64,000 nucleotides of DNA from Octopus sinensis (GCF_006345805.1 NC_043000.1:34348001-34412000), one strand, 5' to 3'. Counted from the stretch's first letter, positions 25,847-51,750 are shown. Made by a program: numbers and translations. Notes: generated by a model from the sequence alone, not told the origin.

Positions 25847-26875
25847 ACTAGCAGAGATACCCGGCGTTGCCCGGTTACATTCAATTGAAGAATTAGACTT
25901 TTCTGTTATATTTTCTGAATGAACTGGAATATCTATGTTTCGAATTTCATCAAAATTGCAGATGAGGGTTATTTCCCTCTTTACACACCCTAAAAAATTG
26001 TAATCATGCCACATGGAAACCAAAAGACGAATGATCACAATAAGCAGTCAGTTACCCTACCCTAGTGGTTACCACTCCCAATGTAGGATTCCTCACCATC
26101 CAGGTGACAGGCACAGCCGTAAGATGCATTACAAATCTATAGCAATTGGAAGGGTGTGACCCAACTGAAATCAACATTAACAACTGTGTGACGTGAGGGC
26201 TAAAGAGAAATTAAAGTGTCACCTCTGGAGTTTGCAAATAACCACTATACTGATACGTAACTGGACAGAATGAATTTAAAATCTATAAATGTCTTTGAAT
26301 AACCAGTCACTCATCTGGGAAGGCCTTGTAATTAATGTTACCATCTGGGGACTATGTGTGACCAAGTGAAAATAAAAAGACTGAAAGGATGTCTGCAATC
26401 AAATAACTTTACTCAACACTTTGCAACTGAATCAGTGGAGACAAAGATGCCTCTCATTTACTTAACAATTTATGCACCACATTGCAGAAATCACAATGTA
26501 AGTGTATGTCAAAGCAAACTGCTACACTGTTGTACCATTGAATTAGAAATAATGCCCAACTTTTATGCTCGGGTAACCCTACAGCTTCCAAGAGCACAAC
26601 TGTATTCGTTTTTGCTTAGATAAAATGACAAAATTGTGGGTGTTAAGTCCCCATGGAGGGGTCTTTCTAACTTTGTAAGAAGATGAAATTTTATAAATAT
26701 TACTTCATTTGTGTCTAATATCTTTGGTTAAAATTTCATCAACAGCAAAAATATTTGAATTGTCATGGGGGTTATGGCCCTTATGCTTAGAATATAATTT
26801 CCAAATTTCATAAAGATCTATTCAGTACTTTTGACCTAGTTTTGGATCATAAAAGAAATGACTAAAATTAGGGTG

Positions 26876-26914
<39 letters not shown>

Positions 26915-26920
26915 GATATA
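25847..26920 (-). mobile_element. probable non-autonomous Helitron (~1 kb)
   Basis: Minus-strand 3' end CCGGGCAACGCCGGG...CTGCTAG, like 16940-17308; 5' end approximate within a TA tract. Confidence 0.55.
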
Positions 26921-27205
26921 GATACACACACACACTAAGATAAATTGATAGATACAACTGAGTGGGCAAACAAAAATATGAGACACAGCCTAGTGCTTTT
27001 TTATGTTGATAAGACTATTACTTATTCTATTAGTTTGTTCTTGTGAAACCAGTAAGTTTTGTGGATGTAAATAAATGAACAGCAGTTGTGAAGCAGTGAT
27101 GAGGGCGAACCACAGACACAATGACACACACATACACTTACATATGTACATATATATATATACGATTGATTTGTTTCAGTTCCTGTCTACGAAATCCATA
27201 TATAT

Positions 27206-29932
27206 TGTTATTGGCATCCTTTTTGTCTCGGGAGACAATGGAGTTGCGCATAAAATAATCTAGTCCGGCTTTTACAGCTCATGTCCTAATACATCTCCTG
27301 CTGTGGATGTGTAGTTCTATCCTGGACAAACACTCCCTCTGGCAGGTGCCGCAATGTTGCGAAGACTTTGTCTGGCTGGTTGTAATGTCATATTTTCTTG
27401 TTGACGTCTTTTCTTGTCTTTCCATTTCTCCTCTCTCTCAATGTCACTCCTTTGTGTTCCCTCTTTTACGGTACGTCACCAATCTCCACGGTTGATGGCA
27501 ACTGCTTCCCAGTTGGTAATATTGATGTTGCAGGCATTCATGTCCCTTTTGCAAACATCATTGTATCGTAAGAACGGTCTTCCCACAGACCTAGTGCCCC
27601 TAGCAAGCTCTCCGTTGAGTATGTCCTTGGGGATTCTGCCATCTTCCATAGGGCTAACATGTCCAAGCTATCTCATACGTCTTTGTGTGAGGAGTGTAAA
27701 CATGCTTGGTATTCCTGCTTGCTTGAGGACATCTTTGTTGGGGACATGATTCTGCCATTTGATGCGAAGGATTTTCCGGAGGCAGCGCAGGTGAAAGATA
27801 TTTAGGTGACGTATGACGTCGTATGGCGTGTGTATAGCGTCCAAGTCTCACTTCCATACAGTAGGGTGCTAAGTACACATGCCTGGTAAATCTTCATTTT
27901 TGTGGTCTTGGTCAGCTTATTGTTGTCCCATGCCCGTTTGGAGAGTTGGGCCATCACAGCAGCTGCCTTGCCAATGCGTATATTGAGCTCAGTATCAAGG
28001 GATAGGTTGTAGGTGACGGTAGAGCCAAGATAGGTAAACTTCTCCACCACCTGTAGTCTGTAGTCTCCAATATGTATGTTTGGGATGGTCGATGTAGCCT
28101 GACCCATGATGTTGGTCTTCTTGAGGCTGATAACTAAGCCAAAGTTGCCACATGCTTGCTCAAAACAGTTGATGAGCCTTTGTAGGGCTTCTTCTGTGTG
28201 TGATACCAGAGCGGCATCATCAGAAAATAAGCATCTCCTTGATCAGGACGCTTCTGATTTTGGTCTTGGCACGCAGACGCGAGAGATTGAACAGTTTCCC
28301 ATCACTTCTACTGTGCAGAAACACTCCATCATCTGATGTCACAAAGGCATGTGACACCAGCAGCGAGAAGATTCCAAATAATGTAGGAGCAAGGACACAA
28401 CCTTGCTTTACCCCATTTTTTATTTGGAAGGCGGCTGATGTTGAACCATTGTGCTGTATGGTGCCTTGCATATCATCATGGAAAGATGTGATGGCCCTCA
28501 GCAACTTTGGTGGACATCCGATTTTTTGGAGCAGGATGAAGAGGCCTTTTCTACTTACCAAGTCAAAGGCCTTTGTCAGATCAATAAAGGCCATATATAA
28601 TGGCATTTTCTGCTCTCTGGACTTCTCCTGAAGTTGGCGTATGGAGAATATCATGTCAATAGTTGATCTGCTTCTTCTAAAGCCACACTGCGATTCTGGA
28701 TAAATTCGAGAAGTAAGCAGTTGCAGCCTGGACAGGATAATGCGAGCAGAGGCCTCTCCAATAGTGCTTAGAAGAGATATTCCACGGTAATTGTTACAAT
28801 CACCACGGTCACCTTTGTTTTTGTAAAGCGTAATGATGTTAGCATCCCGCATATCCTGAGGGACTGTACCCTCTTCTCAGCACTGACACAGAAGCTCATG
28901 AATGTGCCGAAGTAGGATGGTGTTTTTGCCGGTTTTGATGATCTCTAAGGGGATGCCGTCTTTTCCCGGAGCCTTGTTACTTGCTAGGGAGTCAATAGCC
29001 TTGGTGAGCCCTGCTATGGATGGCAGACTGTCAAGTTCACACATGACTGGCAAGATCTTGACACCCTTGATTACAGCCTCAGCTACCGTGGTCTCTCGTG
29101 AGTAGAGATCCTCGTAGTACTCCACCCATCTATACATTTGCTTGCTTTGGTCCTTGATGAGATCCCCAGTAGTTGATTTTAGAGGGGCTGACTTGGTTGC
29201 GGATGGACCAAGGGGCTTCTTCAAACCGGCATACATCCCACGGGTATCGCCACTGCCAGCAACTGACTGGATACTCTGACAGATTTCCTGCCAATACCTA
29301 TTTGAACAGCGTCTGACAGTCAGTTGGGTTTTATTTCTTGCCTTTCTAAGTTCTTCGAGTGACTTTATAGAAGAATCACTCTTGTATTACATCAGAGCTG
29401 CACGCTTTGTTTCGATAACTGTTTCCAGCTCTGAGAGCCCAGCAATGAACAAAATCTGGGTTTTGCCTTTCTCTCATGCCGAAAGTATCTATTGATGTGG
29501 TATACAAAGCTTCCCTCATATAATTCCACCTACTTTCAGCTGTGGTGGTTGGGCAGCTACTGAGAGCAACTTTGATAGAAACAGCAAAACATTGTCGCAG
29601 TGTAGGTTCGGGGGATTCTGGCAGTGTTAATGCGTGGTCGGCCCATTTTCTTGGAGTGATGGACTTTTTTTAGGCAGAATCCTCACCCTGCTTCTTATTA
29701 GTGAATGATCTGTGTCACAATCCGCGCTGTGGTAACTACGAGTCAGTTGAACAGAATTCAGAAAGGGTCTTCGTGTAATGATGAGATCCAGCTGATGCCA
29801 GAGGTGAGATCTTGGATGTCTCCAAGATGCCTTGTGGGATGTCTTGTTGGCAAAGAATGTGTTAGTTATGCACAAGTATGTGCAAAATTCAAGTAGTCTC
29901 TGGCCATTGTCATTCATGTTGCCAATACCAAA
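27206..29932 (-). mobile_element. 5'-truncated RTE-clade LINE (APE end plus RT), degenerate
   Basis: NDNGQRLLEFC, SWRHPRS, SADCDTDHSL, KAPGKDGIP, NYRGISLLS, FIDLTKAFDLV, GVKQGCVLAPTLF, FTYLGS, LLYGSETW. Confidence 0.93.
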
Positions 29933-30002
29933 ACACATACACTTACATATATACATACATATATATATACGATCGATTTGTTTCAGTTCCTGTCTACGAA
30001 AT

Positions 30003-30083
<81 letters not shown>

Positions 30084-30866
30084 ATATACATATATGCATA
30101 CACACACATACATACATATATATTGGGAATTTACAAAAGAAACGAACAAAAGACGAAGACGGGTGTGTAAACAGCAAACAGGTTTATTAGTTTAACGCTC
30201 CGGACTTAGGAAAATTTATATAGGGAGTACTAATGATTTTAAAATTAGATATAGGGGACACAAGAATTCATTTATTCACCCCTATATAAAAAATTACAGA
30301 CATTTTAGTATGTTGTAAGCATACATATTTAGCGTCTTATAATTTTCTTAAACTTTAAAATATAATTTTTTAGAATATAAAAGCTTTTTGAAAATACGGT
30401 CCAATTAGATCCAATGAACACTTATGCACAAACCTGTAATCTTAAATAATTTTTTTTATAGTAGTATCAGTACAGAATGAAACCTTCCCATTGGCTATTA
30501 TTTGCATGATTAACTAAAGTTAACCTTTCAATGAATTTCATTTCTTATTTAAACGCGGTCATCCTCTTGAAAATCTGCTGAACCTCATATCGATACTCAA
30601 AAACTGAACTTTCACCAACTGAATACTCGTCATGTAGTGCATTGAACAGTCGTGTTTTTTTGCGTTTATTGTAAGTTGATATATTTTTGCTGTCGTATTA
30701 TTATCTCTGTTATTCTCTACTGTTTGTCTACCTGTTTTGTATATTGCTGTCTAACTGCCGAAGTCAGCCTTCGCGCGAGGACTTCGCGTTGGTGTTCCCC
30801 CCTCCGTGGGGGAAAAATATCAATTATCTTGAAGTTACCAAGGGCTTGTGAAGCCAACTGTTCAAG

Positions 30867-32190
30867 ATGGAGTCCCCCTTCTCTGATTCTCCCGTGACGA
30901 GTGAAGAGGAGTATCCGGCGATGTCGCCAAGGAAAAAAGAGGCGGTGTCGCCAAAGAAAAAAGAGGCGACGTCACCAAAGAAAAAGGAAAACCCAGCACC
31001 AGCACCAGCTCCAGCGAAAAAATTCTCTGAAGTGGCCGGTAAAAAGATTAAAAAAATAAATATGGAAGATTTGGAAAAATATGCGGACTGTGTAAAAAAA
31101 GAGGGCACGGAAGTGACAGTGGTCACAAACGTCCAAAAACACGACGAAATAGAAAAAAAAAGAATAATTTATAAGACATTTAACACGACGACAAAAATGA
31201 TCGAAAAAATTGAAGAAAAAAAAATAGAGAACTGTCTTAAACCATTAATGGACAAAATAACTTACACTAACAGAGGAAAGAGATACGGCACAGTGGAGGT
31301 GCGTTTCACTACAGAGGAGATAGCGAGAAAACTATCTATGGAACCGATTAAAGCGGAGAACATTGTTCTCCTCCCCTTGTATAAAGGGAAAAGAACATCG
31401 ATAATTACGATGAACAACATTCCCCCAGAGGCAGGTGCCGAATGTCTGGTGGCAGCAGTGATGGTAGGCCTGGAGGAAAAAATAAACATCCTCCAGGCCA
31501 CAGTGGAGGAAGAGGAATTTTGGAAAGGACAGAAAATAGTAATAGCCATTCAGGCGGAAGTTCAAACACTGGAGGAAATTCCAGAAACTTTAAAAATAAG
31601 TGAGGAAGAGAGAATAACAGTTTTCGTGGAGGGCAGAAAGCCGAGGTGCTTCGGCTGCGGCAAGAAGGGTCATGTAAGGGCGGAATGCCAACCCCAACCC
31701 AAACCGCAGGAAGCACCTCAGCCAGGTGAAAAAGAAGATAAAGTGTCACCAGAAGCAGTGAAAAAGGCAGCAGAACCAGCGGCGGAGGAAAATAAGAGCG
31801 AGGAAAAGAAAAATGAGGAGGGGTGGGCAAAAATCACCAGAAAAAAAAAAAAGAAAAACGGAAACCACCCCTCCCAGAGTGAACTTAAAAAAGAAAAGAG
31901 AGTCGATGAACTCGTATATGGCCGTTAAGGCATCAAATAACAGACTTGGAAACGTATTGGCAGCTATGGCCAAAGTGGAGAGAATAGGGAAAAAGAACGA
32001 CTATGTAGTTTACAGGATAGGCCGGAAGGATTACGGACGGATAAAATCCGAATTCTTCCATGACGTAGGCCCACTTAGAATGGATGTGACATCTCCACAT
32101 ATATTCGAGGGCCTACGTCAGACTCCCCCACGAGGCCCTGAAAAAGAGTTAAACAAAGAAGAGAAAGAGAAAACCGAACCACTGATATAA
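30867..32190 (+). pseudogene. Tx1 ORF1 (RRM-like region plus CCHC zinc knuckle), frameshift in A-run near 31850
   Basis: RCFGCGKKGHVRAECQP knuckle; ORFs 30867-31928 and 31813-32190 together align with the intact ORF1 of copy 2. Confidence 0.88.
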
Positions 32191-32199
32191 GGGTAAGTA

Positions 32200-35100
32200 A
32201 TGGATTACATTTATGTTGGTTGTTTGAATGTGCGCGGCCTGGGAGCAGGCTGGAAGCAAGGTCGCTTCCTGCATGATATCAGGTCGCGTAATTTAGATGT
32301 TATTGTTGCTACAGAAACCTGGTTAGAGGGGCCAAGAGGTCTTCTCCCGCTGTTTGACGGCTACGAGAGTTTTTTCTCTCCTGGCAGTCCTACAGGCGGG
32401 AAAGGGGTGTTGGTCCTATTAAAAAGAAACCGGGTTTCTGAGAAAAAGTTAATTTTTGCAGATCCAGAAGGTAGGCTGGTCGTCATGGATTTGCCGTTCA
32501 GTAATGGTAAAGTTATCAGACTGGTTGCAATTTACGCACCCAACAGTAAAAAAGGGCAAAGTGATTATTTTCGTGATCTAGAAAAATTTCTTGGTACTTC
32601 GCATTCATTAGTGGTGCTAGGAGACTTTAACACAATTTGCAAAGCGGATGTAGATTGTGTTGGCTCGTGTCCAGATAGGAGAGGTAACAGTGGCTTCATG
32701 GAACTGCTAAGCCGCTTTGAGCTAGCAGATCCGTATAGGCTGGAATTTCCGAACGCTCCATTGTGGACATGGTCAAACAGCGACGGATCTTCCAGGTCAT
32801 ATATAGATAGAATTCTAATTAGAAAAGTAGACAGTAAAATAGCTAAGTGTCTACAGTTTTACCCGATCAGCTACAGTGATCATAAAATGGTCACTTGTAA
32901 GCTTGACATAGATAAGGTTAGAAATAGAGGATCCGGTTACTGGAAACTTAATACGTCCCTTTTGGCGATTAAGGAGTACAAAGACCGGATTAGGAACATA
33001 ATTCAGAGGGCACTATCCGGTACCATCATTAATAACAAATGGTGGTACGCCCTCAAACGAGCCATCAAGTTTGAGTCTATTAGATATAGCATAGGAGTAG
33101 TGGCTAGAGAGGCTAGAGGGGATAATACTCTAGTTAAGGAATTAGAGGAAGCCATGAAAACTGGCTCTGCGGCTCAGGTGGCGTCCAAGAGACTGGTGTT
33201 AAACCAGCACCTCGAGGCCAAACACATGGGCTGCATTGTCAGGGCTAGAATCCGTCATATGGGATGTGAAGGAATCAACGCCGTGAGATGGGCCCGAGTG
33301 GTGGAAGCTCAGCATGGTAACGGTTCCACGATTCGATCTTTGACGAACCAACAAGGTGAGTTGATAAACGAACCCGAGGAGATGTGTGAGGCCTTTCAGG
33401 AGCACTTCGCTCAGCTTTTCGGTGAGTGCGGCGGACTGGATAGGAGGAGGGCCTTTACGGACCTACTCGACGGGCTGCCGCGCTTATCGGGGCGAGATGC
33501 GGAGGGCTGTGAAGGGCCAATCACGCCTGATGAGGTGGTTGAGGCAATGGCGGACTGCGGCGCGGGCAAGGCGCCGGGTTTGGATGGTCTACCCTATGAG
33601 TTATATAAGAGTATGCCAGACTTGTTCGGGCACCTACTGGCGGAGGTCTATGCGAACTGGCAGCAGAACGGGCTCATACCCAGATCTGTGCGCCGGGGAG
33701 TAGTGACTCTCGTCAGAAAGGACCCGAGCAAGGGGGAGTGCATTGATAATTTCAGGCCCATCACTCTGCTAAACACAGAGTTGAAGATTTTGGCCAAAGT
33801 GTTATCGAAAAGATTGGCGCGTGTCGCGGATGGTCTGATCGGAGAGGCACAGACATGTGCCCTTCCGGGCAGATCCATTCAGGATAATCTCCATCTAATG
33901 CGGTACACTATAGAGGGGTTTAATATGATTCTGGCAAGGGTGGGGTACTGGTCCATTTAGACCAATCTAAAGCTTTGATAGGGTCGACCATCGTTACCTG
34001 GTATCTGCCCTGGCACAGTTCGGGCTGAGCCTTGGCTTCCTCAGGTGGATTATCCAAATGTATGATAACATCGACTCGGTAGTTCGGGTGAACGGCTTCT
34101 TGTCGAAGCCGTTCAAAATCAAACGCTCGGTTCGTCAAGGGTGTCCGCTCTCCCCGCTTTTGTACGTGATGGCTCTAGAGCCATTACTGCGAAAACTGAG
34201 CGGCATCCCGAGACAGCCGGGTAATGGAAAATCAGTGTCAGCGTACGCGGATGACATCACCATCATCGTAACCGAAATGGACCACCTATGTAAAGTAGGC
34301 AAGGCCATAGAGGTTTACGAGACGGTGACAGGAGCAAAAGTTAATCGCGAAAAGTCAGTCGGCTTGCAACTCGGCACCTGGAGAGGCAAGTCGATGCCTC
34401 CTGACAGCGTCGTGGGACGTTGGACGGAGGGTCCGATTAAACTGCTAGGGGTCTGGTTCGGTCCAGACCTCCAAATAGAGAAGAATTGGGGCGAGGTAAC
34501 GAGCAAGGTGGCTGCAGTAGCCAAGACCTGGTCTTGGCGGTGGCTATCCTTGAAAGGGAGGGCGGAGGTGGCCAATGTGTTTATCGCATCGGTTATCACC
34601 TACCGCCTTTCCGTCGTTCCTTGCCCCGATTCGTGGTTGACCAAGTTGGAAAGACAGCTCTTCTACTTCTTGTGGAAGGGTAGGAAACCACTTGTGAAAC
34701 GCTCTACTTGCTGTCAACAACCGTTAAAGGGTGGGCTAGGGATGCCTTGGCTGATGATGCGCAGACATGCGCTGAGGTTAAGACATCTGTGGCTCTACCT
34801 GGATGGTGAACGGGTGTGGTCTCCGTTAGCAAAACTGATGTTTCCCAAGTTCACTAGTTTCGGTGGATGGGAAACCTGGCTGAATCGTAGATCGAAACTC
34901 GGTACTTGGTACACGGAGTGTCGCAAGGCTCTCCTGCTATTCCGTCGCTCGGGCAACGCCTGCGGTGGGGGTTCCACCACATTCTTCTATAGAGGGTTGG
35001 TAGAGGCTGAATGTGAAGATACCTTGGGGGAAACCCTAGGTCTCGACGATAATCAGCTGGCCAGTCTGTTCCGACGTACGTTCAAGCCGAGGACACTGGA

Positions 35101-35596
35101 CAACTTCCAGAAGTCTCTGGCATGGCAATGCTACAGAGGAGCTCTACCTGTTCGGGATAAACTCGCAAGGCACGGTGGCCGAGACAGTCCGATATGTCCA
35201 AGATTCGGGCGGGATAGGGAAACCGTCCCGCACGCTATTGTTCATTGTCCGGACGTGTCTGAGGTGTGGGTTTATGCCGAACAGCTGTTGTCAGGTACAC
35301 GAAGAGTACAGCTGTCGACTGAGTCGATTACAAAAATTGACCCACCGGATTTCCTCGTGAATGAAGGTAAGTTTCGTTTTCTCGTTGTAGTAGCAATTGC
35401 GAAAGAGGTGATATGGAAGACGAGAGTGAAAGGTTTACAGTCAGGCAAGTTCATCTCTGGCCCTGGTTTGATGAATTATTTCATCTTCCACCTGAAAAGG
35501 AAGATAGGGCTGGAGAGAATATGCCTGACTAGGAGAGTGTATGAAGAACGATGGAAAGATGTGGCACGGAAGTTGCGAGTGAAAGATACAACATAA
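32200..35596 (+). pseudogene. Tx1 ORF2 (APE, RT, C-terminal zinc finger) with two 1-bp deletions near 33924 and 33973
   Basis: Colinear with copy 2 ORF2; CPRC changed to CPRF in the zinc finger. Confidence 0.92.
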
Positions 35597-36062
35597 ATGT
35601 AATACCAAGCGCAACCAAAAGTATCAGTGGGGAGGCGGGGCTCGTGGGGTCCGAGCTAAACCCGCACCCACTCCATCTGTAATGTCTTCCGGTCTATTCC
35701 ATCATTCGATTTGTGTATATTCTTGTAATTTCATGTTATTTTTAAATCCGATTTTTTGTAAAAACCATCCGTATGTCTGACCCCACATCAGATTGTATTG
35801 TCCCCTCTATGTTCGCCCCTTGTGGGTAGTAATAAAATCAACTGAATACTCGTCATAGTGTATAGTGAGTTATTATATTTTTGCCTTGTGTATATTTTCT
35901 CTGTTGTGATCTACTGTGTGTCTAGCTGTCTTTCTGTATTGTTGTACAACTATTGAAGTCGGCCTTCGTGCGAGGGCTTCGTGTTGGTGTTCCCCCCTCC
36001 GTGGGGGAAAAACTATCATTATCTTGGTTGTGCCAAGGACTTGTTAAAGCCAGTTATCGGAG

Positions 36063-37379
36063 ATGGAATCCCCCATCTCATATTCACCTGTGACTAGTGA
36101 TGCAGGATCACCGGCGGTGTCGCCAAAGAAAAAAGAGGCGGGGTCGCCAAAGAAAAAAGATATTCCAGCACCAGCGAAAACATTTTCGGAAGTAGCTGGT
36201 AAAAAAATTAAAAAAATTAATGTCGAAAACCTAAAGAAACATGCGGACTGTGTGTCAAAAGAGGGCACGGAAGTAACCGTGGCTTCAAACGCCCAAAAAC
36301 AGGAAGAAATTACAAATAGAAGAATAATTTATAAGACCTTCAATACAACAAGCAGATCAATACAAAAAATAGAGGAGAAAAAAATCGAAAATTGCTTAAA
36401 GCCGATAATGGATAAAATCACATACATCAATCGAGGGAAGAAATACGGCACAGTGGAGGTGAGATTCACAACAGAGGAGGTAGCTAAGAAGCTATCCATG
36501 GAACCAATAAAAGCGGAGGATATTGTTCTCCTACCCCTGTATAAAGGCAAAAGAACATCAAAGATCACAATGAATAATATTCCGCCAGAAGCGGATGCCG
36601 AAGTTCTGGTGGCAGCAGTTATGGTAGGCCTGGAGGAAAAAATAAACATCCTCCAGGCCACTGTAGAGGAGGAAGAATTCTGGAAAGGGCAACGGATAAT
36701 AATAGCCATCCAGGCAGAAATACAAACCCTGGAGGAGATTCCAGAGACTCTAAAAATAAGCGAAGAAGATAGAGTCACAGTCTTCGTAGAGGGCAGAAAG
36801 CCGAGGTGCTTCGGCTGCGGTAAGAAAGGGCATGTAAGGGCAGAATGCCAACCCAAACCGCAAGAAGCAGCTAAGCCAAGTGGAAAAGCAGAAGAGGTGT
36901 CATCAGAAACAGCGCTGGTCGGCCCAGGAGGGACGGTTGAAGGTGTGGAGGTGACAGAGGCAGCGGAACCAGCGGCGGAGGCAAAAAAGAGCGAGGAAAC
37001 GAAAAAGGAGGAGGGGTGGTCAAAAATCACTAGAAAAAAAAGAAAAACTGAAACCACCCCTCCCAAAGTAAATCAAAAGAAGAAAAGAGAGTCGTTGAAC
37101 TCATTTATGGCCGTTAAGGCCACGAACAATAGACTCGGTAATGTGTTGGCAGCGATGGCCAAAGTAGAAAAAATAGGGAGGAAAAATGACTATGTATTGT
37201 ACAGAATAGGCCGGAAGGATTACGGACGGATAAAGTCCGAATTTTTTCATGACGTAGGCCCGCTCAGAATGGATATAACATCTCCATATATATTCGAGGT
37301 CCTGCGTCAGACTCCCCCACGAGGCACAGAAAAAGAGACAAACAAAGAAGAAAAAGAAAAAACCGAACCACTGATATAA
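36063..37379 (+). CDS. Tx1 ORF1 protein, 438 aa nucleic-acid-binding protein with CCHC knuckle
   Basis: Open ORF; YGTVEVRF RRM-like strand; CxxCxxxGHxxxxC. Confidence 0.9.
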   Translation: MESPISYSPVTSDAGSPAVSPKKKEAGSPKKKDIPAPAKTFSEVAGKKIKKINVENLKKHADCVSKEGTEVTVASNAQKQEEITNRRIIYKTFNTTSRSIQKIEEKKIENCLKPIMDKITYINRGKKYGTVEVRFTTEEVAKKLSMEPIKAEDIVLLPLYKGKRTSKITMNNIPPEADAEVLVAAVMVGLEEKINILQATVEEEEFWKGQRIIIAIQAEIQTLEEIPETLKISEEDRVTVFVEGRKPRCFGCGKKGHVRAECQPKPQEAAKPSGKAEEVSSETALVGPGGTVEGVEVTEAAEPAAEAKKSEETKKEEGWSKITRKKRKTETTPPKVNQKKKRESLNSFMAVKATNNRLGNVLAAMAKVEKIGRKNDYVLYRIGRKDYGRIKSEFFHDVGPLRMDITSPYIFEVLRQTPPRGTEKETNKEEKEKTEPLI

Positions 37380-37388
37380 GGGTAAGTA

Positions 37389-40300
37389 ATGGATTACATT
37401 TATGTTGGTTGTTTGAATGTGCGAGGCCTGGGAGCAGGCTGGAAGCAAGGTCGCTTCCTGCATGATATCAGGTCGCGTAATTTAGATGTTATTGTTGCTA
37501 CAGAAACCTGGTTAGAGGGGCCAAGAGGTCTACTCCCGCTGTTTGACGGCTACGAGAGTTTTTTCTCTCCTGGCAGTCCTACAGGCGGGAGAGGGGTGTT
37601 GGTCCTATTAAAAAGAAACCGGGTTTCTGAGAAAAAGTTAATTTTTGCAGATCCAGAAGGTAGGCTGGTCGTCATGGATTTGACGTTCAGTAATGGTAAA
37701 GTTATCAGACTGGTTGCAATTTACGCACCCAACAGTAAAAAATGGCAAAGTGATTATTTTCGTGATCTAGAAAAATTTCTTGGTACTTCGCATTCATTAG
37801 TGGTGCTAGGAGACTTTAACACAATTTGCAAAGCGGATGTAGATTGTGTTGGCTCGTGTCCAGATAGGAGAGGTAACAGTGGCTTCATGGAACTGCTAAG
37901 CCGCTTTGAGCTAGCAGATCCGTATAGGCTGGAATTTCCGAACGCTCCATTGTGGACATGGTCAAACAGCGACGGATCTTCCAGGTCATATATAGATAGA
38001 ATTCTAATTAGAAAAGTAGACAGTAAAATAGCTAAGTGTCCACAGTTTTATCCGATCAGCTACAGTGATCATAAAATGGTCACTTGTAAGCTTGACATAG
38101 ATAAGTTTAGAAATAGAGGATCCGGTTACTGGAAACTTAATACGTCCCTTTTGGCGATTAAGGAGTACAAAGACCGGATTAGGAACATAATTCAGAGGGC
38201 ACTATCCGGTACCATCATTAACAACAAATGGTGGTACGCCCTCAAACGAGCCATCAAGTTTGAGTCTATTAGATATAGCATAGGAGTAGTGGCTAGAGAG
38301 GCTAGAGGGGATAATACTCTAGTTAAGGAATTAGAGGAAGCCATGAAAACTGGCTCTGCGGCTCAGGTGGCGTCCAAGAGACTGGTGTTAAACCAGCACC
38401 TCGAGGCCAAACACATGGGCTGCATTGTCAGGGCTAGAATCCGTCATATGGGATGTGAAGGAATCAACGCCGTGAGATGGGCCCGAGTGGTGGAAGCTCA
38501 GCATGGTAACGGTGCCACGATTCGATCTTTGACGAACCAAGAAGGTGAGTTGATAAACGAACCCGAGGAGATGTGTGAGGCCTTTCAGGAGCACTTCGCT
38601 CAGCTTTTCGGTGAGTGCGGCGGACTGGATAGGAGGAGGGCCTTTACGGACCTACTCGACGGGCTGCCGCGCTTATCGGGGCGAGATGCGGAGGGCTGTG
38701 AAGGGCCAATCACGCCTGAGGAGGTGGTTGAGGCAATGGCAGACTGCGGCGCGGGCAAGGCGCCGGGTTTGGATGGTCTACCCTATGAGTTATATAAGAG
38801 TATGCCAGACTTGTTCGGGCACCTACTGGCGGAGGTCTATGCGAACTGGCAGCAGAACGGGCTTATACCCAGATCTGTGCGCCGGGGAGTGGTGACCCTC
38901 GTCAGAAAGGACCCGAGCAAGGGGGAGTGTATTGATAATTTCAGGCCCATCACTCTGCTAAACACAGAGTTGACGATTTTGGCCAAAGTGTTATCGAAAA
39001 GATTGGCGCGTGTCGCGGATGGTCTGATCGGGGAGGCACAGACATGTGCCGTTCCGGGCAGATCCATTCAGGATAATCTCCATCTAATGCGGTACACTAT
39101 AGAGGGGTTTAATAATGATTCTGGCAAGGGTGGGGTACTGGTCCATTTAGACCAATCTAAAGCCTTTGATAGGGCCGACCATTGTTACCTGGTATCTGCC
39201 CTGGCACAGTTCGGGCTGAGTCTTGGCTTCCTCAGGTGGATTATCCAAATGTATGATAACATCGACTCGGTAGTTCGGGTGAACGGCTTCTTGTCGAAGC
39301 CGTTCAAAATCAAACGCTCGGTTCGTCAAGGGTGTCCGCTCTCCCCGCTTTTGTACGTGATGGCTCTTGAGCCATTACTGCGAAAACTTAGCGGCATCCC
39401 GAGACAGCCAGGTAATGGAAAATCAGTGTCAGCGTACGCGGATGACATCACCATCATCGTAACCGAAATGGACCACCTATGTAAAGTAGGCAAGGCCATA
39501 GAGGCTTACGAGACGGTGACAGGAGCAAAAGTTAATCGCGAAAAGTCAGTCGGCTTGCAACTCGGCACCTGGAGAGGCAAGTCGATGCCTCCTGACAGCG
39601 TCGTGGGACGTTGGACGGAGGGTCCGATTAAACTGCTAGGGGTCTGGTTCGGTCCAGACCTCCAAATAGAGAAGAATTGGGGCGAGGTAACGAGCAAGGT
39701 GGCTGCAGTAGCCAAGACCTGGTCTTGGCGGTGGCTATCCTTGAAAGGGAGGGCGGAGGTGGCCAATGTGTTTATCGCATCGGTTATCACCTACCGCCTT
39801 TCCGTCGTTCCTTGCCCTGATTCGTGGTTGACCAAGTTGGAAAGACAGCTCTTCTACTTCTTGTGGAAGGGTAGGAAACCACTTGTGAAACGCTCTACTT
39901 GCTGTCAACAACCGTTAAAGGGTGGGCTAGGGATGCCTTGGCTGATGATGCGCAGACATGCGCTGAGGTTAAGACATCTGTGGCTCTACCTGGATGGTGA
40001 ACGGGTGTGGTCTCCGTTAGCAAAACTGATGTTTCCCAAGTTCACTAGTTTCGGTGGATGGGAAACCTGGCTGAATCGTAGATCGAAACTCGGTACTTGG
40101 TACACGGAGTGTCGCAAGGCTCTCCTGCTATTCCGTCGCTCGGGCAACGCCTGCGGTGGGGGTTCCACCACATTCTTCTATAGAGGGTTGGTAGAGGCTG
40201 AATGTGAAGATACCTTGGGGGAAACCCTAGGTCTCGACGATAATCAGCTGGCCAGTCTGTTCCGACGTACGTTCAAGCCGAGGACACTGGACAACTTCCA

Positions 40301-40787
40301 GAAGTCTCTGGCATGGCAATGCTACAGAGGAGCTCTACCTGTTCGGGATAAACTCGCAAGGCACGGTGGCCAAGACAGTCCGATATGTCCAAGATGCGGG
40401 CGGGATAGGGAAACCGTCCCGCACGCTATTGTTCATTGTCCGGACGTGTCTGAGGTGTGGGTTTATGCCGAACAGCTGTTGTCAGGTACACGAAGAGTAC
40501 AGCTGTCGACTGAGTCGATTACAAAAATTGACCCACCGGATTTCCTCGTGAATGAAGGTAAGTTTCGTTTTCTCGTTGTAGTAGCAATTGCGAAAGAGGT
40601 GATATGGAAGACGAGAGTGAAAGGTTTACAGTCAGGCAAGTTCATCTCTGGCCCTGGTTTGATGAATTATTTCATCTTCCACCTGAAAAGGAAGATAGGG
40701 CTGGAGAGAATATGCCTGACTAGGAGAGTGTATGAAGAACGATGGAAAGATGTGGCACGGAAGTTGCGAGTGAAAGATACAACATAA
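37389..40787 (+). CDS. Tx1 ORF2 protein, 1132 aa: AP endonuclease, reverse transcriptase, zf-RVT
   Basis: LNVRGL, ETW, IYAPN, GDFN, SYIDR, SDH (APE); WKLNTSLL; KAPGLDG, FRPITLLN, DQSKAFDR, RQGCPLSP, YADD (RT); KGGLGMP; CPRC-x8-H-x4-C. Confidence 0.97.
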   Translation: MDYIYVGCLNVRGLGAGWKQGRFLHDIRSRNLDVIVATETWLEGPRGLLPLFDGYESFFSPGSPTGGRGVLVLLKRNRVSEKKLIFADPEGRLVVMDLTFSNGKVIRLVAIYAPNSKKWQSDYFRDLEKFLGTSHSLVVLGDFNTICKADVDCVGSCPDRRGNSGFMELLSRFELADPYRLEFPNAPLWTWSNSDGSSRSYIDRILIRKVDSKIAKCPQFYPISYSDHKMVTCKLDIDKFRNRGSGYWKLNTSLLAIKEYKDRIRNIIQRALSGTIINNKWWYALKRAIKFESIRYSIGVVAREARGDNTLVKELEEAMKTGSAAQVASKRLVLNQHLEAKHMGCIVRARIRHMGCEGINAVRWARVVEAQHGNGATIRSLTNQEGELINEPEEMCEAFQEHFAQLFGECGGLDRRRAFTDLLDGLPRLSGRDAEGCEGPITPEEVVEAMADCGAGKAPGLDGLPYELYKSMPDLFGHLLAEVYANWQQNGLIPRSVRRGVVTLVRKDPSKGECIDNFRPITLLNTELTILAKVLSKRLARVADGLIGEAQTCAVPGRSIQDNLHLMRYTIEGFNNDSGKGGVLVHLDQSKAFDRADHCYLVSALAQFGLSLGFLRWIIQMYDNIDSVVRVNGFLSKPFKIKRSVRQGCPLSPLLYVMALEPLLRKLSGIPRQPGNGKSVSAYADDITIIVTEMDHLCKVGKAIEAYETVTGAKVNREKSVGLQLGTWRGKSMPPDSVVGRWTEGPIKLLGVWFGPDLQIEKNWGEVTSKVAAVAKTWSWRWLSLKGRAEVANVFIASVITYRLSVVPCPDSWLTKLERQLFYFLWKGRKPLVKRSTCCQQPLKGGLGMPWLMMRRHALRLRHLWLYLDGERVWSPLAKLMFPKFTSFGGWETWLNRRSKLGTWYTECRKALLLFRRSGNACGGGSTTFFYRGLVEAECEDTLGETLGLDDNQLASLFRRTFKPRTLDNFQKSLAWQCYRGALPVRDKLARHGGQDSPICPRCGRDRETVPHAIVHCPDVSEVWVYAEQLLSGTRRVQLSTESITKIDPPDFLVNEGKFRFLVVVAIAKEVIWKTRVKGLQSGKFISGPGLMNYFIFHLKRKIGLERICLTRRVYEERWKDVARKLRVKDTT

Positions 40788-41043
40788 ATGTAATACCAAG
40801 CGCAACCAAAAGTATCAGTGGGGAGGCGGGGCTCGTGGGGTCCGAGCTAAACCCGCACCCACTCCACCTGTAATGTCTTCCGGTCTATTCCATCATTCGA
40901 TTTTGTGTATATTCTTGTAATTTCATGTTATTTTTAAATCCGATTTTTTGTAAAAACCATCCGTATGTCTGACCCCACATCAGATTGTATTGTCCCCTCT
41001 ATGTTCGCCCCTTGTGGGTAGTAATAAAATCAACTGAATACTC

Positions 41044-41092
41044 ACCATGTAGTACCTTACTGATTTTTGCTGGATTTTACCTCGAGAAAGGA
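41044..41092 (-). other. putative short exon ending ATG|GTGAGT, containing a TCT-initiator match
   Basis: Minus strand TCCTTTCT (YYC+1TTTYY) at 41092-41085; ATG at 41048-41046; donor GT at 41045-41044. No partner exon found. Confidence 0.35.
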
Positions 41093-41093
41093 A

Positions 41094-41440
41094 GTACTTG
41101 TATCGCAGAGTGGTCCCGGTTTGCGCACACACGCAGACGCGCGTCCGCGCTAACCAGACGTAGGCAGTCGATCGTACGAGCTGATTGGCGCATGCACGAT
41201 ATATACTTGTATCGATATATACGTGTATACGATATATACTTGTATATATACGATATATACTTGTATCGCACAAGTATATATCATATATATACAAGTATAT
41301 ATCGTATACACGTATATATCGATACAAGTATATATCGTGCATGCGCCAGTCAGCTCGTACGATCGACTGCCTACGTCTGGCTAGCACGGACGCGCGTCTG
41401 CGCGTGTGCGCAAACCGGGACCACTCTGCGATACAAGTAC
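41094..41440. mobile_element. 347-bp palindromic foldback MITE, Mutator-like
   Basis: ~170-bp arms GTACTTGTATCGCAGAG...CTCTGCGATACAAGTAC; 11-bp TSD CGAGAAAGGAA at 41083-41093 and 41441-41451. Confidence 0.88.
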
Positions 41441-41598
41441 CGAGAAAGGAAACCTGAGGAAGGAGGGCTAAATTTCGAATACTTCGTACAACCACTTTTC
41501 TGAAACGGCTGCAGGTTAGGAAAAAAATTTTAATCGCCTCTTTCAATTTAGGTTTTTATTTTTCATGTTTATATTCGTATTTCATTGTTATGTTTATA

Positions 41599-42159
41599 TT
41601 GGGTTGTCCGGAAAGTTCGTTCCGATTTTTAAAGGAAAGTAAAGGTCACTAAATACTTGCCATCACATTTTTAATCAACCAAATCTGAACCATTTCGCTG
41701 CACAATACGTCTCCAGCTTTCCTTTACCTTGAAAATACCCTCTTCCCAGAATTGGGGTGGTTTCAAGGCAAAGAATTCGTCAAGGTATCGTTTTACGTCA
41801 TCTAAGAAATTGAAATTTTTACCATTAAGACTTTTCTGCAGAGACCTGAATAAGTGGAAATCCGAAGGAGCAATATCTGGGGAATAGGTGGGGGTAACAC
41901 ATCCCAGCCGAGCTGCAGCAATTTTTGTCTGGTTCCCAAAGCATCAAGTGCCGAAAATGAACTTTCTCATCTTTTATTTTAAAGGGTTACAGAATTAATA
42001 CAGGTTATAGGAACATAAACCTTCTTCCACGAAAACATAGCTTAAACTGTGCTCTAAATGGAGGTGTAGTCAAATCCTATTTTATGGACTCAAACATGTT
42101 CTAAAATAAGTCAAAAGATAAGCTACTATAAATCGGCACGAACTTTCCGGACAACTCAA
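41599..42159 (-). mobile_element. internally deleted mariner
   Basis: TIRs TTGGGTTGTCCGGAAAGTTCG / CGAACTTTCCGGACAACTCAA with TA on both sides; LLQLGWDVL and PDIAPSDFHLFRSLQ on minus strand. Confidence 0.9.
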
Positions 42160-42406
42160 TATTTCTATATTTTTATCATGAAACTCTTAACATAAATATG
42201 TGTATATTCGTATGGAATAATACCTCATGTGCTACATCTGAATTTTCTTGTCTGGATGTTTTAAGACAAATATCCAAAATTTTTATCGTATACCACATTT
42301 AATTAATACTTAGCTCATATACGGAGACAAAAATGTTGTACTATATACTGCAGGTTATCTCCATTAAAATTCTCGTATTATATACATTATATATACATAA
42401 TATGCA

Positions 42407-43132
42407 CACTGGCGAAAATAAATTTAAGATCGATTATAAAAGTTCTATTTCTTTCAAAATATTCTGTTACTAGCCCTTTGCCGATCTTTATATTGACCAG
42501 TATCCGAGTATAACTTCCACGCTTGCACGCAAGCCGGTTTACTGCACTTTAGTTGCTTGCTGATGTCCGAAAAGGAAACTTATTGCTGTAATATACGATT
42601 TTTGCTCTCGTGACTGGACTAAGGCTACTTTGTTTTCCCATTATTAATAAATTGTATAATAACATTAAATTACAACTTTATATGATGCATTTAGGCTCGT
42701 TGTGTGACCACCCATTTTGGCCAAAAAAATTGCATACTTATTACATGGTCTTAAACTAATTTTGCCGGTAAATTTGAAACGTTTATATTACGCTCTGAGT
42801 TCAAATTCCGCCGAGGTCGACTTTGCCTTTCATCCTTTCGGGTCGATAAATTAAGTACCAGTGACGCACTGGGGTCGATGTAATCGACTTAATCCGTTTG
42901 TCTGTCCTTGTTTGTCCCCTCTATGTTTAGCCCCTTGTGGGCAGTAAAGAAATATATATTAATTTAGCATTAGAATTCTTCAAGTTGTATAAAAATTGTT
43001 TGCATCATTCGAAAGAGAAATAAATTTTGCATAAGGTGTAAAAGATATGAATAATTTGTATGGTGTTAGTAACAAAATATTTTGTAAGAAGTAGAACTTT
43101 TATCGTCGGTCTTAAATATATTTTCGCTGGTG
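42407..43132 (-). mobile_element. internally deleted Tc1-like element
   Basis: TIRs CACTGGCGAAAATAAATTTAAGA / TCTTAAATATATTTTCGCTGGTG; inner repeat near 42750; N-terminal HTH remnant MGKQSSLSPVTRAKIV...ISKQLKCSK...YSDTGQYKDRQR. Confidence 0.65.
42787..42953 (+). mobile_element. 5'-truncated family A SINE
   Basis: Core plus tail TTGTCCCCTCTATGTTTAGCCCCTTGTGGGCAGTAAAGAAAT. Confidence 0.88.
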
Positions 43133-43140
43133 TATATATC

Positions 43141-45705
43141 TCAGGTCATCCCATAAGTTCTGTCCGAATTTTGAATAAAGAATCCAAGTGATCAAATGTT
43201 ATATTTAATTGAAAGTTAATCATCAATGTACTTTCCCTGATTATCTATGACTTCCTTACATCTATTTACAAGCTTTTTAATTCCATCAATGTAAAACTCT
43301 TTTGGTTTCAAAGCGAAGAACTCTGAAATGTCAGGTTCGACCTCCTCCTGGCTTGCGAAAGTTGTGTCCCCCTAAAGGAGTAAGGTCGGGAGAATAAGTT
43401 GGATGAAGAAATTTTTCCAAACCGACCTCTTCGATCTTCTGTGATGTGATCTTTGCAGTGTGGGGTTGCGCATTGTCCTGATGAAACACCACTCATTTTC
43501 GACTCACTAAAGCGGCTCTTTTTTCCTTCAAAGCTTGGTTCAAACGCTCTAATTGTTGACAGTAGACTTGAGCATTGATTGTTGCATTAGGTGGTAACAA
43601 TATAAAGTGAATTACGCCTTTGCAATCGCACCAGATAGAGTAGAACCTTTTTCCCCATGAAGTTCCCTTCTTGGTTGTGGTTGAACATTTTCCCTTTTAC
43701 CAAGCCACTTTTTACGACGTTTAACATTTCGATAGAAAATCCATTTTTCGTCACAAGTCTATCGAAAAAGGGTGAAATGAGTTTGCGAGAATGGAGAGAA
43801 GAGCAGATGTCAACTCAGGATTTGCGGTTGCTTTCGGACAATACATGAGGCACCTATTTTCCAAGTTTAGGAATATTTCCAAGTTGTTGAAGATGACGAT
43901 GAACTGTTGTATGGTTTGAAGTAAGCTTTATTGCCAATTCTTCAACTGATAATGGCGGATTTTCTTCAAGTAATGCCTCAAGGAGCTTATCATCAAACTC
44001 AACTGGACATCCTATTCGATCTTCATCTTCAATTTTGCAAACGATCTCCTGCAAGTTCCTTCATTCAAGCACTTTCCCTTAAACTGAGTGTATGTTTCGA
44101 ATCACTTCGGTTGCAGAGTTACCCTTATTGTACTCATAAAGAATTATATGTGCCTTAAATGCTCCTTGGATACTTCCATGTTGAAAGGGTTTTAATCAAA
44201 GCAATTTTAGGGTGTCCACGAAGTCTGGGTAGATGAATAAAATCATAACAATTATAAGAAATAATAATTTTCCTTTTTTTACTTTTGTTTAAATTAAATA
44301 AAAAAATACGTTACTTTTTAAAAATTATTTGTTATTTTTTCTACAGATGATCGAAGAAGAAAGAAGAAAGAATCCCAGATCGAATGACGGATCTGTCTAA
44401 AGAAGAAAGAATCCCAGATCGAATGACGGATCTGTCTAAAGAAGAAAGAATCGAGTTAGTATTATTAAGTGGACGAGAGGAATGGTCTTATTGCAAAATT
44501 GCGGAAGAATTTAATCTTCGACACCCTTATAGGCAACCTTTTTTTTTACTGCCGTCGGGAAATTGATCACGAAATTTAAAGAAACAGGCAGTGTTTTGGA
44601 TAAACCCCGTTCCGGGCGATCAAAGACTTCAGATGAAACGAAAGAGGCTGTCGAGGCTAAAGTTTCTGCTAGCCCAAAGAAATCACTTCGGACATCCACG
44701 GTGTTAGGTGTTCCAAAACTAACCATCCACAAAATGCTGGTTGAGGAAAAGTTTCATCGATACAACCTACAGATACTGCATCACTTAAATGAAGACGACC
44801 CTGATAGACGAATGTAGACGTGCGAATGGTTTTCAGATAAATTGGATGAAAATATCAATTTTACGAAAAACTTTGTGTTGTTCAGTGACAAAGCTACGTT
44901 TTATGTAACTGGTGAGGTCAACAGACAGAATCTTCTGTACTGGTCTCGAGGTAATCCACATTGGATGGATCCATCCAAACAGCAAGGCAGTAAAAAGGTG
45001 ATGGTGTGGTGTGGTTTGTGGAAAGTTCATGTTCTAGGATCCTTCTTCATTGAACGTGTAACGGATGAGACTTATGTAAACATATTTAGAGACAAATTAA
45101 TATCTCAAATTGAGCGCCTAGGCGAGGGCCTTCCGAATTGGTTTCAGCAGGATGGGGCCCCTACCCATTTTGCCACAACTGTTAGAGATTGGCTTAATGA
45201 CACTTTTCCTCACTAGTTTGGAAGAAGGGCTCATATGTTAAGGTCCCCTCGTTCACCAGACCTTTCTCCCCTTGATTTCTTTTTCTGGGGTATGTTGAAA
45301 GAAAAATTACAATAAAGATTACAGATTTAAGGCACATGAGAGAACGCATTACCAGTCAGTGTGTTGAAATTGATGGCAATGTAGACTTATTTAATCAAGT
45401 TCACCTGAATTTTGCAAGGCGCATCAAGTTATGCATTAAAAATGATGGAAATCACTTTGAAAATATTATTTATTAACATTATAATTAAATAAAATTGTTT
45501 TGTTTTAAAAGTATGTGTTAATCCCCATGTACGCAGACTTTGTGGACACCCTCTATTATTTTGTAAAACAGTATTGAATTAGTTTAAACGTACACAAATG
45601 CATAAACATAATTTTTAATTGAATTAGACATTTGAAATTACTATTAAATTTCATTCAAATCTAAAAAAAAAGGTAAAATTGAACAGAACTGATTGGATGA
45701 CTTGA
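43141..45705 (-). mobile_element. degenerate mariner interrupted by a rosa-like element
   Basis: TIRs TCAGGTCATCCCATAAGTTCTGTCC / GAACAGAACTGATTGGATGACTTGA; transposase remnants (TVHRHLQQLG, VTKNGF/CDEKW region, FHQDNA). Confidence 0.85.
44208..45553 (+). mobile_element. rosa/DD41D-like Tc1-mariner element
   Basis: TIRs AGGGTGTCCACGAAGTCTG / CAGACTTTGTGGACACCCT followed by TA; KFKETGSVLDKPRSGR, FSDKATF, FQQDGAPTH...PRSPDLSPLDFFFWG (40 residues between the last two Asp in this decayed copy). Confidence 0.85.
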
Positions 45706-46616
45706 TATATAATCTATGATATTCTAGTAGGTTTCAAGTTTATAACACCTTGATATCTCATGTTATCTCATTTTATATGCCTAAGATGTTTATTTTCTAT
45801 TCTGGTTTTTATATATTTCTATACATTATATTTGTATCTATAATTTATTTTAAGCCGAATATGGTGACATGTGCGATGATTTTGCGACTATCTTATATTT
45901 TACAGAGAAATTGGAAGCCCCCAATGTAAGCCACCACTTTAAGCATAATACAATATTTATAGTTCTCTATTTCTAACTCAAATTCTGTCCTCAATAATTA
46001 TTGATCTCTATTTCTAAATGTAATTCTTTTTCTTCTCGTTCAGTTTATAACTATAACACGCATTCTTGTCTGTCTCTTGACAAAGCTTTTTTTCTCCAGC
46101 GTTCACCGCTTCACCTCGTTAGGGTTAAACAGTCCTTACCGAATGTTTTCACTATCCTGTTTTTGTTAGCAGCTTTGATGTTCTACGTATCTCAAATTTT
46201 AATTTGCTTTGAGGGAGCAATTGCTTTGAAAAAGACGCATCTTGTTGCACTGCTCGCAATGCGGAGTAGGTAAATCTGCCAGCAATTGAGGAAGGGTTGT
46301 TTTTTTATGCAGCCATTGCGCTATAGTTCTCTATATATAATGGAAATTCTTTCTTTGTCCCGACCCGACCCGACCCGCTGTGTACAGTCGCCCAGAGCGA
46401 GCTCTGGCTGGTCCGAGGTTATAGCAGAAGACACATGCCAAGTTACCACACAGTGGAACTGAACTGAGGACCAAGTGTTTTGGAACCAAGTTTGCTACCC
46501 TGCACCTGTGTGTGTGGGTGGTTGGGTGTATCGGTATGTGTGTATGGGTGTATATAAGTATGCATGTGTATATATATGTGTACATATTACATGTACTTCT
46601 ATATATACATCTAGAC

Positions 46617-46835
46617 CAGTGGTTTTCAACCAGGGTTCCGCGGAACCTTAGGGTTCCGCCAGTACAGTGCAGGGGTTCCGCAAGAAGTTGCAAAACTGCT
46701 AAAATCGGCAGTAATTTTTAGGTCGCCTGTGCAGATATGTGTGCATAAGACTATTGAATTATTGCACAGGGGTTCCTCGAGCCAGTGAAATGTTTCCTTG
46801 GGGTTCCTCTCCTGCAAAAAGTTTGAAAAGCAGTG
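46617..46835. mobile_element. hAT (Charlie-like) MITE
   Basis: TIR CAGTGGTTTTCAAC / TTTGAAAAGCAGTG; 8-bp TSD ATCTAGAC at 46609-46616 and 46836-46843. Confidence 0.88.
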
Positions 46836-47347
46836 ATCTAGACATACATGTTTACATATACATGTATATCTATAGAAATACATCTATACATATACATCAG
46901 TATATATACATGTATTTATATATATATGTATATATATATATTTTGTATTTATATGTATATATATATATTGTATATATATATGTATATATGTATATATATA
47001 TATTTTATATATATAGTATATATATGTATATATATATTTTATATATATATGTATATATGTATATATATATATTTTATATATATATGTATATATAGTATAT
47101 ATATATTTTATATATATATGTATATATATGTATAATATATATTTTATATATATATATGTATATATATGTATATATATTTTTATATATATATGTATATATA
47201 TATGTATATATATATTTTATATATATATGCATATATATTTTATATATATATTTTATATATATATGTATATATAGTATATATATATATTTTATATATTATA
47301 TGTATATATATGTATATATATATATTTTATATATATATATACATGTG

Positions 47348-47393
<46 letters not shown>

Positions 47394-47406
47394 ATTATAT
47401 ATATTA

Positions 47407-47797
47407 CTAGTCGCCATGATAGATCGTTAGCCACTACGCACATTTTTTTTCTACCATAGCGGATCTTCTTCTAGCAAAATGGATGACCACTGTTAATGGT
47501 TCATCCGTGTTATATAATACTTTCACTTTAATAGTTTCAGTATTAAAGTGAAAGTGTCTGCATTACAATAGCGAGATGTTTTTGTTTCACTTTTAACACG
47601 TAATACTGAAATAGTGGAGAAGATATGATATTGCTGTGGGGCCGCCCTAGGCAAAAAGTAAAAATTTTTTTTGCCGATGACACTCCCCCGACCTTAAAGC
47701 ATGTGTAAAATTTGAATGAAATTGGTTGTGTAGTTCTCAAGTTTTAGGGAAACACACAGACAGACAGGCACACATTCTCAGTTGTATATATATAGAT
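47407..47797 (-). mobile_element. probable non-autonomous Helitron remnant
   Basis: Minus-strand 5' TCTATATATA...GTCTGTCTGTGTG...CAACCAATTTCATTCAAATTT resembles the 16940 family; CTAG at 47407. Confidence 0.45.
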
Positions 47798-51519: not shown

Positions 51520-51750
51520 AAATCGGCGAGCTAGCAGAAACGTTAGCACGCCGGGCGAAATGCGTAGCCGTATTTCGTCTGCCGTTACGTTCTGAGTTCA
51601 AATTCCGCCAAGGTCGACATTGCCTTTCGTCCTTTCGGGGTCGATAAATTAAGTACCAGTTACGCACTGGGTCGATCTAATCGACTTAATCCGTTTGTCT
51701 GTCCTTGTTTGTCCCCTCCATGTTTAGCCCCTTGTGGGTAATAAGACAAA
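51520..51750 (+). mobile_element. family A SINE monomer
   Basis: Full head, core and tail; imperfect TSD GTTATA(C/G)ATAAGCTC. Confidence 0.88.

Follow-up and report, generated by a model that had tools for sequence, protein, structure and literature searches.

The window analysed here, 64,000 nucleotides of one strand from Octopus sinensis (GCF_006345805.1 NC_043000.1:34348001-34412000), carries at 30616..41043 a head-to-tail pair of Tx1-like long interspersed nuclear elements (LINEs), which an earlier note had singled out as a candidate new sequence-specific retrotransposon. The pair belongs to a real, independently repeated, site-preferring Tx1-like family whose target is a Helitron-type element, here termed Helitron A. 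On the sequence comparisons set out below, the pair probably represents two insertions, likely successive, of one LINE lineage at a preferred nucleotide of that element, made by target-primed reverse transcription with a relaxed endonuclease and with read-through RNA likely pairing with the target.

Three identical copies of CAACTGAATACTC frame the pair on the plus strand, at 30616..30628 (site A), 35839..35851 and 41031..41043. These three copies are as first described; no further copy is present on either strand of the window. The first consists of a C followed by a 12-bp target-site duplication (TSD), the middle one has the same junction type as stacks on C5, C3 and C9, and the third runs on into Helitron A. 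Copy 1 (30629..35839) and copy 2 (35852..41031), both on the plus strand, are 5210 and 5179 bp long and stop at the identical base without poly(A), in keeping with the size of about 5.2 kb and the common end originally reported. Copy 1 comprises a target-derived head (30629-30640), a 5' untranslated region (UTR) and first open reading frame (ORF1) of the type designated c1, an ORF2 of lineage A and a 3'UTR; its ORF1 starts at ATG 30867 and its ORF2 runs from ATG 32200 to 35596, both on the plus strand. Copy 2 has a c2-type 5'UTR, an ORF1 of 438 aa (36063-37379, plus strand) with one CCHC knuckle, an ORF2 of 1132 aa (37389-40787, plus strand) with an apurinic/apyrimidinic endonuclease-like (APE) domain, a reverse transcriptase (RT) and a C-terminal CCHC, and a 3'UTR that ends in the tail discussed below.

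Identity between the copies, calculated per 200-nt bin, bears out the earlier observation that their 5' halves diverge and that the pair is no simple tandem duplication. The 5'UTR and ORF1 are 77-88% identical, while the ORF2 and 3'UTR are 97.5-100% identical, about 99% overall, with the switch falling at the ORF1/ORF2 border. The ORF1 proteins are 71% identical, and because third positions carry most of the differences between them (34/27/105 at the first, second and third positions of 304 codons) they look like real divergence rather than sequencing error. What had been taken for two related elements is instead a single ORF2 lineage carrying different 5'/ORF1 modules, of which the c1 type occurs at nine further loci with 91-98% identity. 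Both copies are full-length, as proposed, but copy 1 is not intact: a longer A-run shifts the frame of ORF1 near 31850 (31841-31853), and two single-base gaps lie in ORF2 near 33925 and 33973. These three frameshifts may be mutations or assembly indels; in short-read contigs from all four runs, both bases missing from copy 1 ORF2 are present in family copies. Copy 2 has both frames open and shows the ELTIL (for ELKIL) and DRAD (for DRVD) differences from copy 1 that had been noted, and it may be impaired by the private changes W119 and A596, both at residues that are uniform among the remaining copies examined.

The ORF2 of copy 2 matches only Exo_endo_phos, RVT_1 and zf-RVT in Pfam, the closest solved structures to its endonuclease being L1 endonucleases. 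This architecture, an N-terminal APE domain, an RT, a C-terminal CCHC (at aa 1000) and no RNase H, is the one expected of the Tx1 clade of the L1 group. The zf-CCHC match in ORF1 is weak (E 0.07), and the Atlas look-alikes of ORF1, which are commonest in Mollusca, include ZCCHC3-like clusters at 0.88-0.90, a lead only. ORF1 proteins with a CCHC knuckle and ZCCHC3-type RNA-binding domains are linked to Tx1. In an RT tree that was poorly rooted and included no named Tx1, the query joins a fish protein with ZCCHC3-type ORF1 domains (support 0.76) and lies outside a separate 0.99 clade holding two named vertebrate L1-like matches; no informative named homologue was present among 107 matches or 10 clusters. 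Architecture and RT tree, the latter with modest support, fit an element on the Tx1 side of the L1 group.

Site use was counted from the best 40 of 1353 3'UTR candidates, those 40 being the ones scored, together with 15 relatives of the copy 1 module. Two of the 40 lacked a 3' end. Of the 38 complete ends, site A accounts for 12 (including the two in the window) and a further hot spot, site B, for 10; A-7 and a position at about A-33 have two each, and the other 12 lie elsewhere, at 11 loci. Four of the 38 thus lie within about 35 bp of site A without being at it, and the chance expectation at site A is about 1e-6, taking about 190 targets. The claim of sequence specificity therefore holds as a strong preference, 26 of the 38 ends falling in two Helitron hot spots, but not as strict specificity, since 12 lie outside them. 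Tx1 elements have been called target-specific when a single repeat type accounts for over 20% of their flanks (PMC4494074; here and below, statements credited to a source refer to the portions of it available to us), a threshold exceeded here with 26 of 38 ends in the hot spots and 12 of 38 at one nucleotide. The related flanks of many other genomic copies show that the pair is not a lone case. Elements at seven site-A loci are 98.7% alike while their Helitron flanks are 93.6% alike, the corresponding values at site-B loci are 97.9% and 94.6%, and the 5' truncations differ among site-A insertions. The elements being more alike than the flanks, the insertions came after the spread of the Helitrons, and these data, which support many independent hits at site A, rule out a single insertion hitch-hiking with the Helitron.

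The earlier note could not assign the target to a described family. It does appear to be an undescribed preferred target, but it can be assigned, to a non-autonomous Helitron-type element. Helitron A (25848..47796, minus strand) is a composite of about 11.5 kb without the Tx1 pair, and its ends were fixed by comparing 50-kb blocks around four empty sites. It has a 5'-TC at 47796, a GC hairpin with CTAG at 25848-25874, a position between A and T, and a (CTGT)n-like repeat near its 5' end. The main blocks are common to four other loci at about 88-97%, with the 3' end present in three of the four and the 5' end likewise in three. On either side of the pair the sequence lines up with that of many empty copies of this long repeat, and the genome has 29 exact, uninterrupted 34-mers of site A. 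The 27-mer at the 3' end has 199 exact genome matches and the segment upstream of site A about 190 candidates, which suggests a copy number of about 190-200. Terminal TC, 3' hairpin with CTAG and insertion between A and T are those described for non-autonomous Helitrons, and insect Hel-2 and Lep1 also share the (CTGT)n repeat and captured DNA (PMC4344730); judged by these described features, Helitron A differs in being far longer and in serving as a LINE landing pad. Site B, which has 925 exact 27-mers in the genome, lies in a shorter Helitron-type element of the same family, of 1.1-1.6 kb, with at least 925 copies, a 5' end shared with Helitron A and a similar 3' hairpin with CTAG. Site B is itself inside an apparently captured, decayed fragment of an ORF1 from the same clan of elements, so that a piece of the clan would itself be the landing site for the clan (L149, L165).

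Because stacks of mixed units recur at many loci, the pair in the window is an ordinary state of the family. Several B sites carry such stacks, as do loci on C5, C3 (two loci), C9, C8 and C2; they contain two to five or more units, which may be full-length, truncated, from a sister family of 75% identity, or 1.7-kb elements with ORF1 only. Even among the 29 'empty' sites, seven have other tails of the clan within about 30-60 bp upstream. Two copies, L016 and L019 (C9 near 71.07 and 70.96 Mb), break off at one and the same base, 20 nt short of the end of the tail, and a common other sequence follows. The 13-mer does not suffice as a target: the genome has 243 occurrences of it, against 26 of the reversed control, but only four of the first 30 occurrences are Helitron A, and none of the 26 non-Helitron A matches among those 30 has an element end beside it. 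Many 13-mer matches (L031-L060, for example L037, L048, L049 and L058) belong to a different dispersed repeat. An RNA gene or microRNA as the target, of the U2, 5S, tRNA or small-RNA type used by Keno, Mutsu and Dewa, was ruled out by Rfam and tRNA searches, which gave no Rfam match at gathering score in the window, none credible at 30300-36200, and no tRNA gene. A coding exon, considered from a minus-strand ATG followed by GT, was also rejected, as the ATG opens no reading frame and the site is part of a mobile composite, and a 5' ribozyme found no support in Rfam.

The junctions refine the insertion site. At four loci where the first base differs from the target (L097, L113, L127 and L217), the 3' junction carries the element's base. 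Because the last base is element-templated at these junctions, the C of the 13-mer is probably the last base of the element; the repeated 13-mer on which a 13-bp TSD had been proposed is present, but the duplication is probably 12 bp, and the bottom-strand nick predicted at CAGTTG^GTGAA is probably one base off, at CAGTT^GGTGAA. Other target duplications are about 10 to 25 bp. Both copies do start with GTCAT, as reported, but GTCAT is a donor-target head and not part of the element body: the sequence of this locus, like that of 29 of 32 alleles compared, is ACCAT, and the first 12 nt of copy 1 correspond to a rarer allele found in 2 of the 32. The 5' end of the off-target insertion L091 includes some 40 nt from upstream of the target site. 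As these heads differ from the local sequence they appear to have been carried by RNA, which would imply co-transcription from upstream.

Sites A, A-33 and B correspond to lineages of the 3'UTR but not to the 5'/ORF1 module. Six of the 15 relatives of the copy 1 module are at site B, two in the site-A hot spot, one off-target and one in the head of another element, with five having no end within the stretch examined; since a module found at site A in the window occurs at site B in these six relatives, it is the 3' part with which the target goes. The earlier note took the shared site to imply an APE with a target that it could not assign to a described family. The APE endonuclease is present, but it does not alone obviously explain the site, as near-identical enzymes use different ones. 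The endonucleases of the three lineages are 94-99% identical, and only 2 of 236 residues distinguish L112, a copy at A-33, from L121, a copy at site B (L127 being left out of this comparison). The loop matching L1 bB6-bB5, which has been implicated in target choice (PMC1950540), is identical in all 10 copies read. When the 12 off-target ends were assigned by 3'UTR identity, nine best matched the site of their own lineage, two tied and one went against it (permutation p=0.0007). All five A-33 off-target flanks begin with ACT, site B begins with ACA or ACC, and at all sites the bases following the nick resemble A[A/C]N[T/G].

We infer that the simplest account of site choice is a relaxed nick combined with pairing to a read-through flank. 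The silkworm elements R1Bm and SART1, both APE-type, insert in 28S rDNA and telomeres respectively. A target-like sequence at the 3' end of their RNA aids accurate priming (PMC7265360). They belong to another clade, and their flank refines one fixed site, whereas here it would vary by lineage and be inherited. Transcription in O. sinensis would start upstream, in the Helitron or in an upstream stacked copy, and run a few bases past the element into its own duplicated target. The ORF2 protein would bind the tail of about 45 nt and nick the bottom strand at roughly C^A[A/C]N[T/G], the nicked end would pair with the read-through flank so that each lineage re-selects the site of its parent, and the 5' join would form through the target-like head on the cDNA. 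Every insertion would duplicate the site and arrays would grow, with template switching in them swapping ORF1 modules and giving rise to the 1.7-kb ORF1-only elements. Extending this, we tentatively propose that the insertion site could be an RNA-inherited trait: a near-invariant ORF2 would land where its read-through 3' flank pairs, a lineage would keep the site of its parent yet could switch targets without protein change, Helitrons would supply landing pads that are constantly renewed, and this machinery would also drive the ORF1-only elements and an abundant CORE-type short interspersed nuclear element (SINE).

Several observations weigh against site choice by the RNA flank. Lineage A differs from the A-33 and B lineages at 8-15 endonuclease residues, among them I202L at the position of L1 I204, and because of these changes part of the lineage signal could be protein-encoded. 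Template switching once the nick had been made could account for the chimeric copies L094, L121 and L127, and the off-target end of L116 contradicts the own-lineage pattern. The off-target sample is small and score-biased, with only two ends for lineage B. An RNA-templated flank extends past the first base in a single, ambiguous case (L099), and nine of the 13 tails form the hairpin when folded at minimum energy, the four without it being of the ORF2 type.

Specificity of the Tx1L type, in which the endonuclease or another part of ORF2 alone reads the site, a few substitutions shift the target and re-nicking of the duplicated target yields stacks, must accordingly be considered; we regard it as doubtful, though it deserves serious weight. 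In vitro, the Tx1L endonuclease cuts hardly anything besides its own site (PMC1950540), and the lineage A substitutions, I202L included, and the A[A/C]N[T/G] look common to all sites would both be consistent with recognition by protein. L090, however, carries L202 yet sits at site A, the A-33 and site-B copies use flanks starting ACT and ACA or ACC with as few as two residues different and an identical loop, and the donor-derived heads also count against a reading by the endonuclease alone. Insertion of the pair in one event, from a read-through transcript of a two-copy stack or by recombination between stacks, appears improbable. Stacks are common, heads and flanks would be co-transcribed in the model, and the two ORF2 sequences are 99% identical; that value is nevertheless the usual identity between loci (98.7%), no second locus with the c1-then-c2 order occurs among those examined, and a one-event origin would alter only how this stack formed and not the site preference. 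Misassembly of the pair, by joining two alleles or loci at the shared target, is unlikely and we give it only the slightest weight: short-read contigs, the only ones compared, cannot span the pair, in one X1 contig the upstream flank runs directly into a c2-type head (30616 to 35841), and the copy 1 indels are of a kind produced by long-read assemblies, but the same flank-to-head junction occurs at other loci (L092, L093), an X1 contig matches the copy 1 5' module at 100% over 169 nt, the sequence to either side of the pair lines up with empty Helitron copies, and stacks of mixed composition occur at many loci.

The tail of the LINE is shared with smaller elements. A tRNA/CORE-type SINE, with nine matches in the window and 52 in the 553 kb examined, aligns with it over about 42 nt with few differences, as in the 5'-truncated copy at 42788..42954 (plus strand). 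Its flanks favour a motif other than those of lineages A and B and its end is nearer that of the sister family, so that its partner may be another clan member. We presume this SINE to be OR1/OR2; it is highly abundant, with a CORE-like body behind a tRNA-like head. The octopus CORE-SINEs on record include OR1 and OR2, with no partner LINE named in the parts of those papers available to us (PMC4758252, PMC4824008), and tRNA/CORE-type SINEs are abundant in octopuses (PMC8967140); a Tx1-tailed octopus SINE was not found in the literature searched, including the available portions of PMC4758252, PMC4824008, PMC5786205 and PMC3747384. Further copies lie at about 3051-3285, 6474-6706, 15690-15921 and 51585-51744 in the window; several of the SINE copies interrupt the head of another copy, repeatedly at one position, and a tandem array is present in L120. 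The final 42 nt or so of the LINE are also found in the ORF1-only elements. Those of 1.7-1.9 kb, HAL1-like and stacked with full elements, include L100 (C3 near 35.928 Mb), L095-L096, L103-L104 and L105-L106, and some are inserted in each other's 5' region. HAL1 and HeT-A are likewise ORF1-only non-autonomous LINE derivatives (PMC5786205, PMC5753468), from the L1 and Jockey clades, whereas the elements described here belong to a Tx1-like clan, share its tail and are stacked in arrays within Helitrons. Repeat tails at L133:5653-5702 and L087:1562-1612 have stem variants that preserve pairing, suggesting a wider clan of tail-sharing elements.

The closest parallel is Tx1L of Xenopus laevis, a two-ORF APE/RT element with a fixed site in the non-autonomous piggyBac transposon Tx1D (PMC4494074). 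The octopus family differs in having a Helitron-type target, in its several sites spread over two containers, in placing roughly one end in three off-target, and in using different sites with near-identical endonucleases, where that of Tx1L is strict in vitro (PMC1950540). Tx1-Mar, Tx1-9_AMi and the SINEUs of crocodilians show a comparable preference for Mariner or Harbinger elements, target-derived 5' extensions and tandem insertions that sandwich the TSD, as in SINEU-3; SINEUs end in poly(A) and, as far as the available text of that study goes, no LINE with the SINEU-1 3' end was found, whereas here SINE and LINE share a tail (PMC4494074). Known Tx1 targets include piggyBac, Mariner, Harbinger and LTR elements, microsatellites, U2, U5 and 5S, and the word Helitron has no occurrence in the main text (PMC4494074). 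Thirteen recently active L1-Tx1 families are reported from octopus, with no targets given in the part of the source available (PMC13282606). Literature searches gave no Tx1 with a Helitron target and no octopus Tx1 targeting, their coverage lying outside Repbase, the PMC13282606 library and the PMC4494074 supplements, which could already hold the family.

Helitron A carries other cargo, including RT-coding, mariner-like, SINE and miniature inverted-repeat transposable element (MITE) pieces. The RT-coding fragments, which we take to be RTE-like, and the mariner/Tc1-like fragments lie at 28176-29900, 41596-42162 and 43140-45216, and 36-nt inverted ends are present at 41596 and 42162. A near-perfect palindromic MITE-like insertion of 347 bp (41094..41440, unstranded), with 171-nt arms of 97% identity, is missing from the other Helitron A copies compared. 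Just upstream of the hot spot (30487..30554, plus strand) are motifs that we take to be CCAAT-like, octamer-like and TATA-like, arranged presumably as in histone H2B promoters; most empty-site copies that have the native flank upstream also keep them, and they possibly form a putative promoter. A donor-like CAG/GT occurs near 41515.

How site-specific retrotransposons switch targets is a long-standing question, the answer to which is usually sought in the evolution of the endonuclease. With three young lineages whose near-identical endonucleases are found at different sites, the question of RNA versus protein becomes directly testable. The Helitron joins the list of Tx1-type targets, a candidate partner clade is offered for an abundant tRNA/CORE-type SINE, and ORF1-only derivatives are now seen in a Tx1-like clan. 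If the RNA flank does steer insertion, these elements would represent a naturally re-targetable, RNA-guided gene inserter, and thus a lead for programmable insertion tools.

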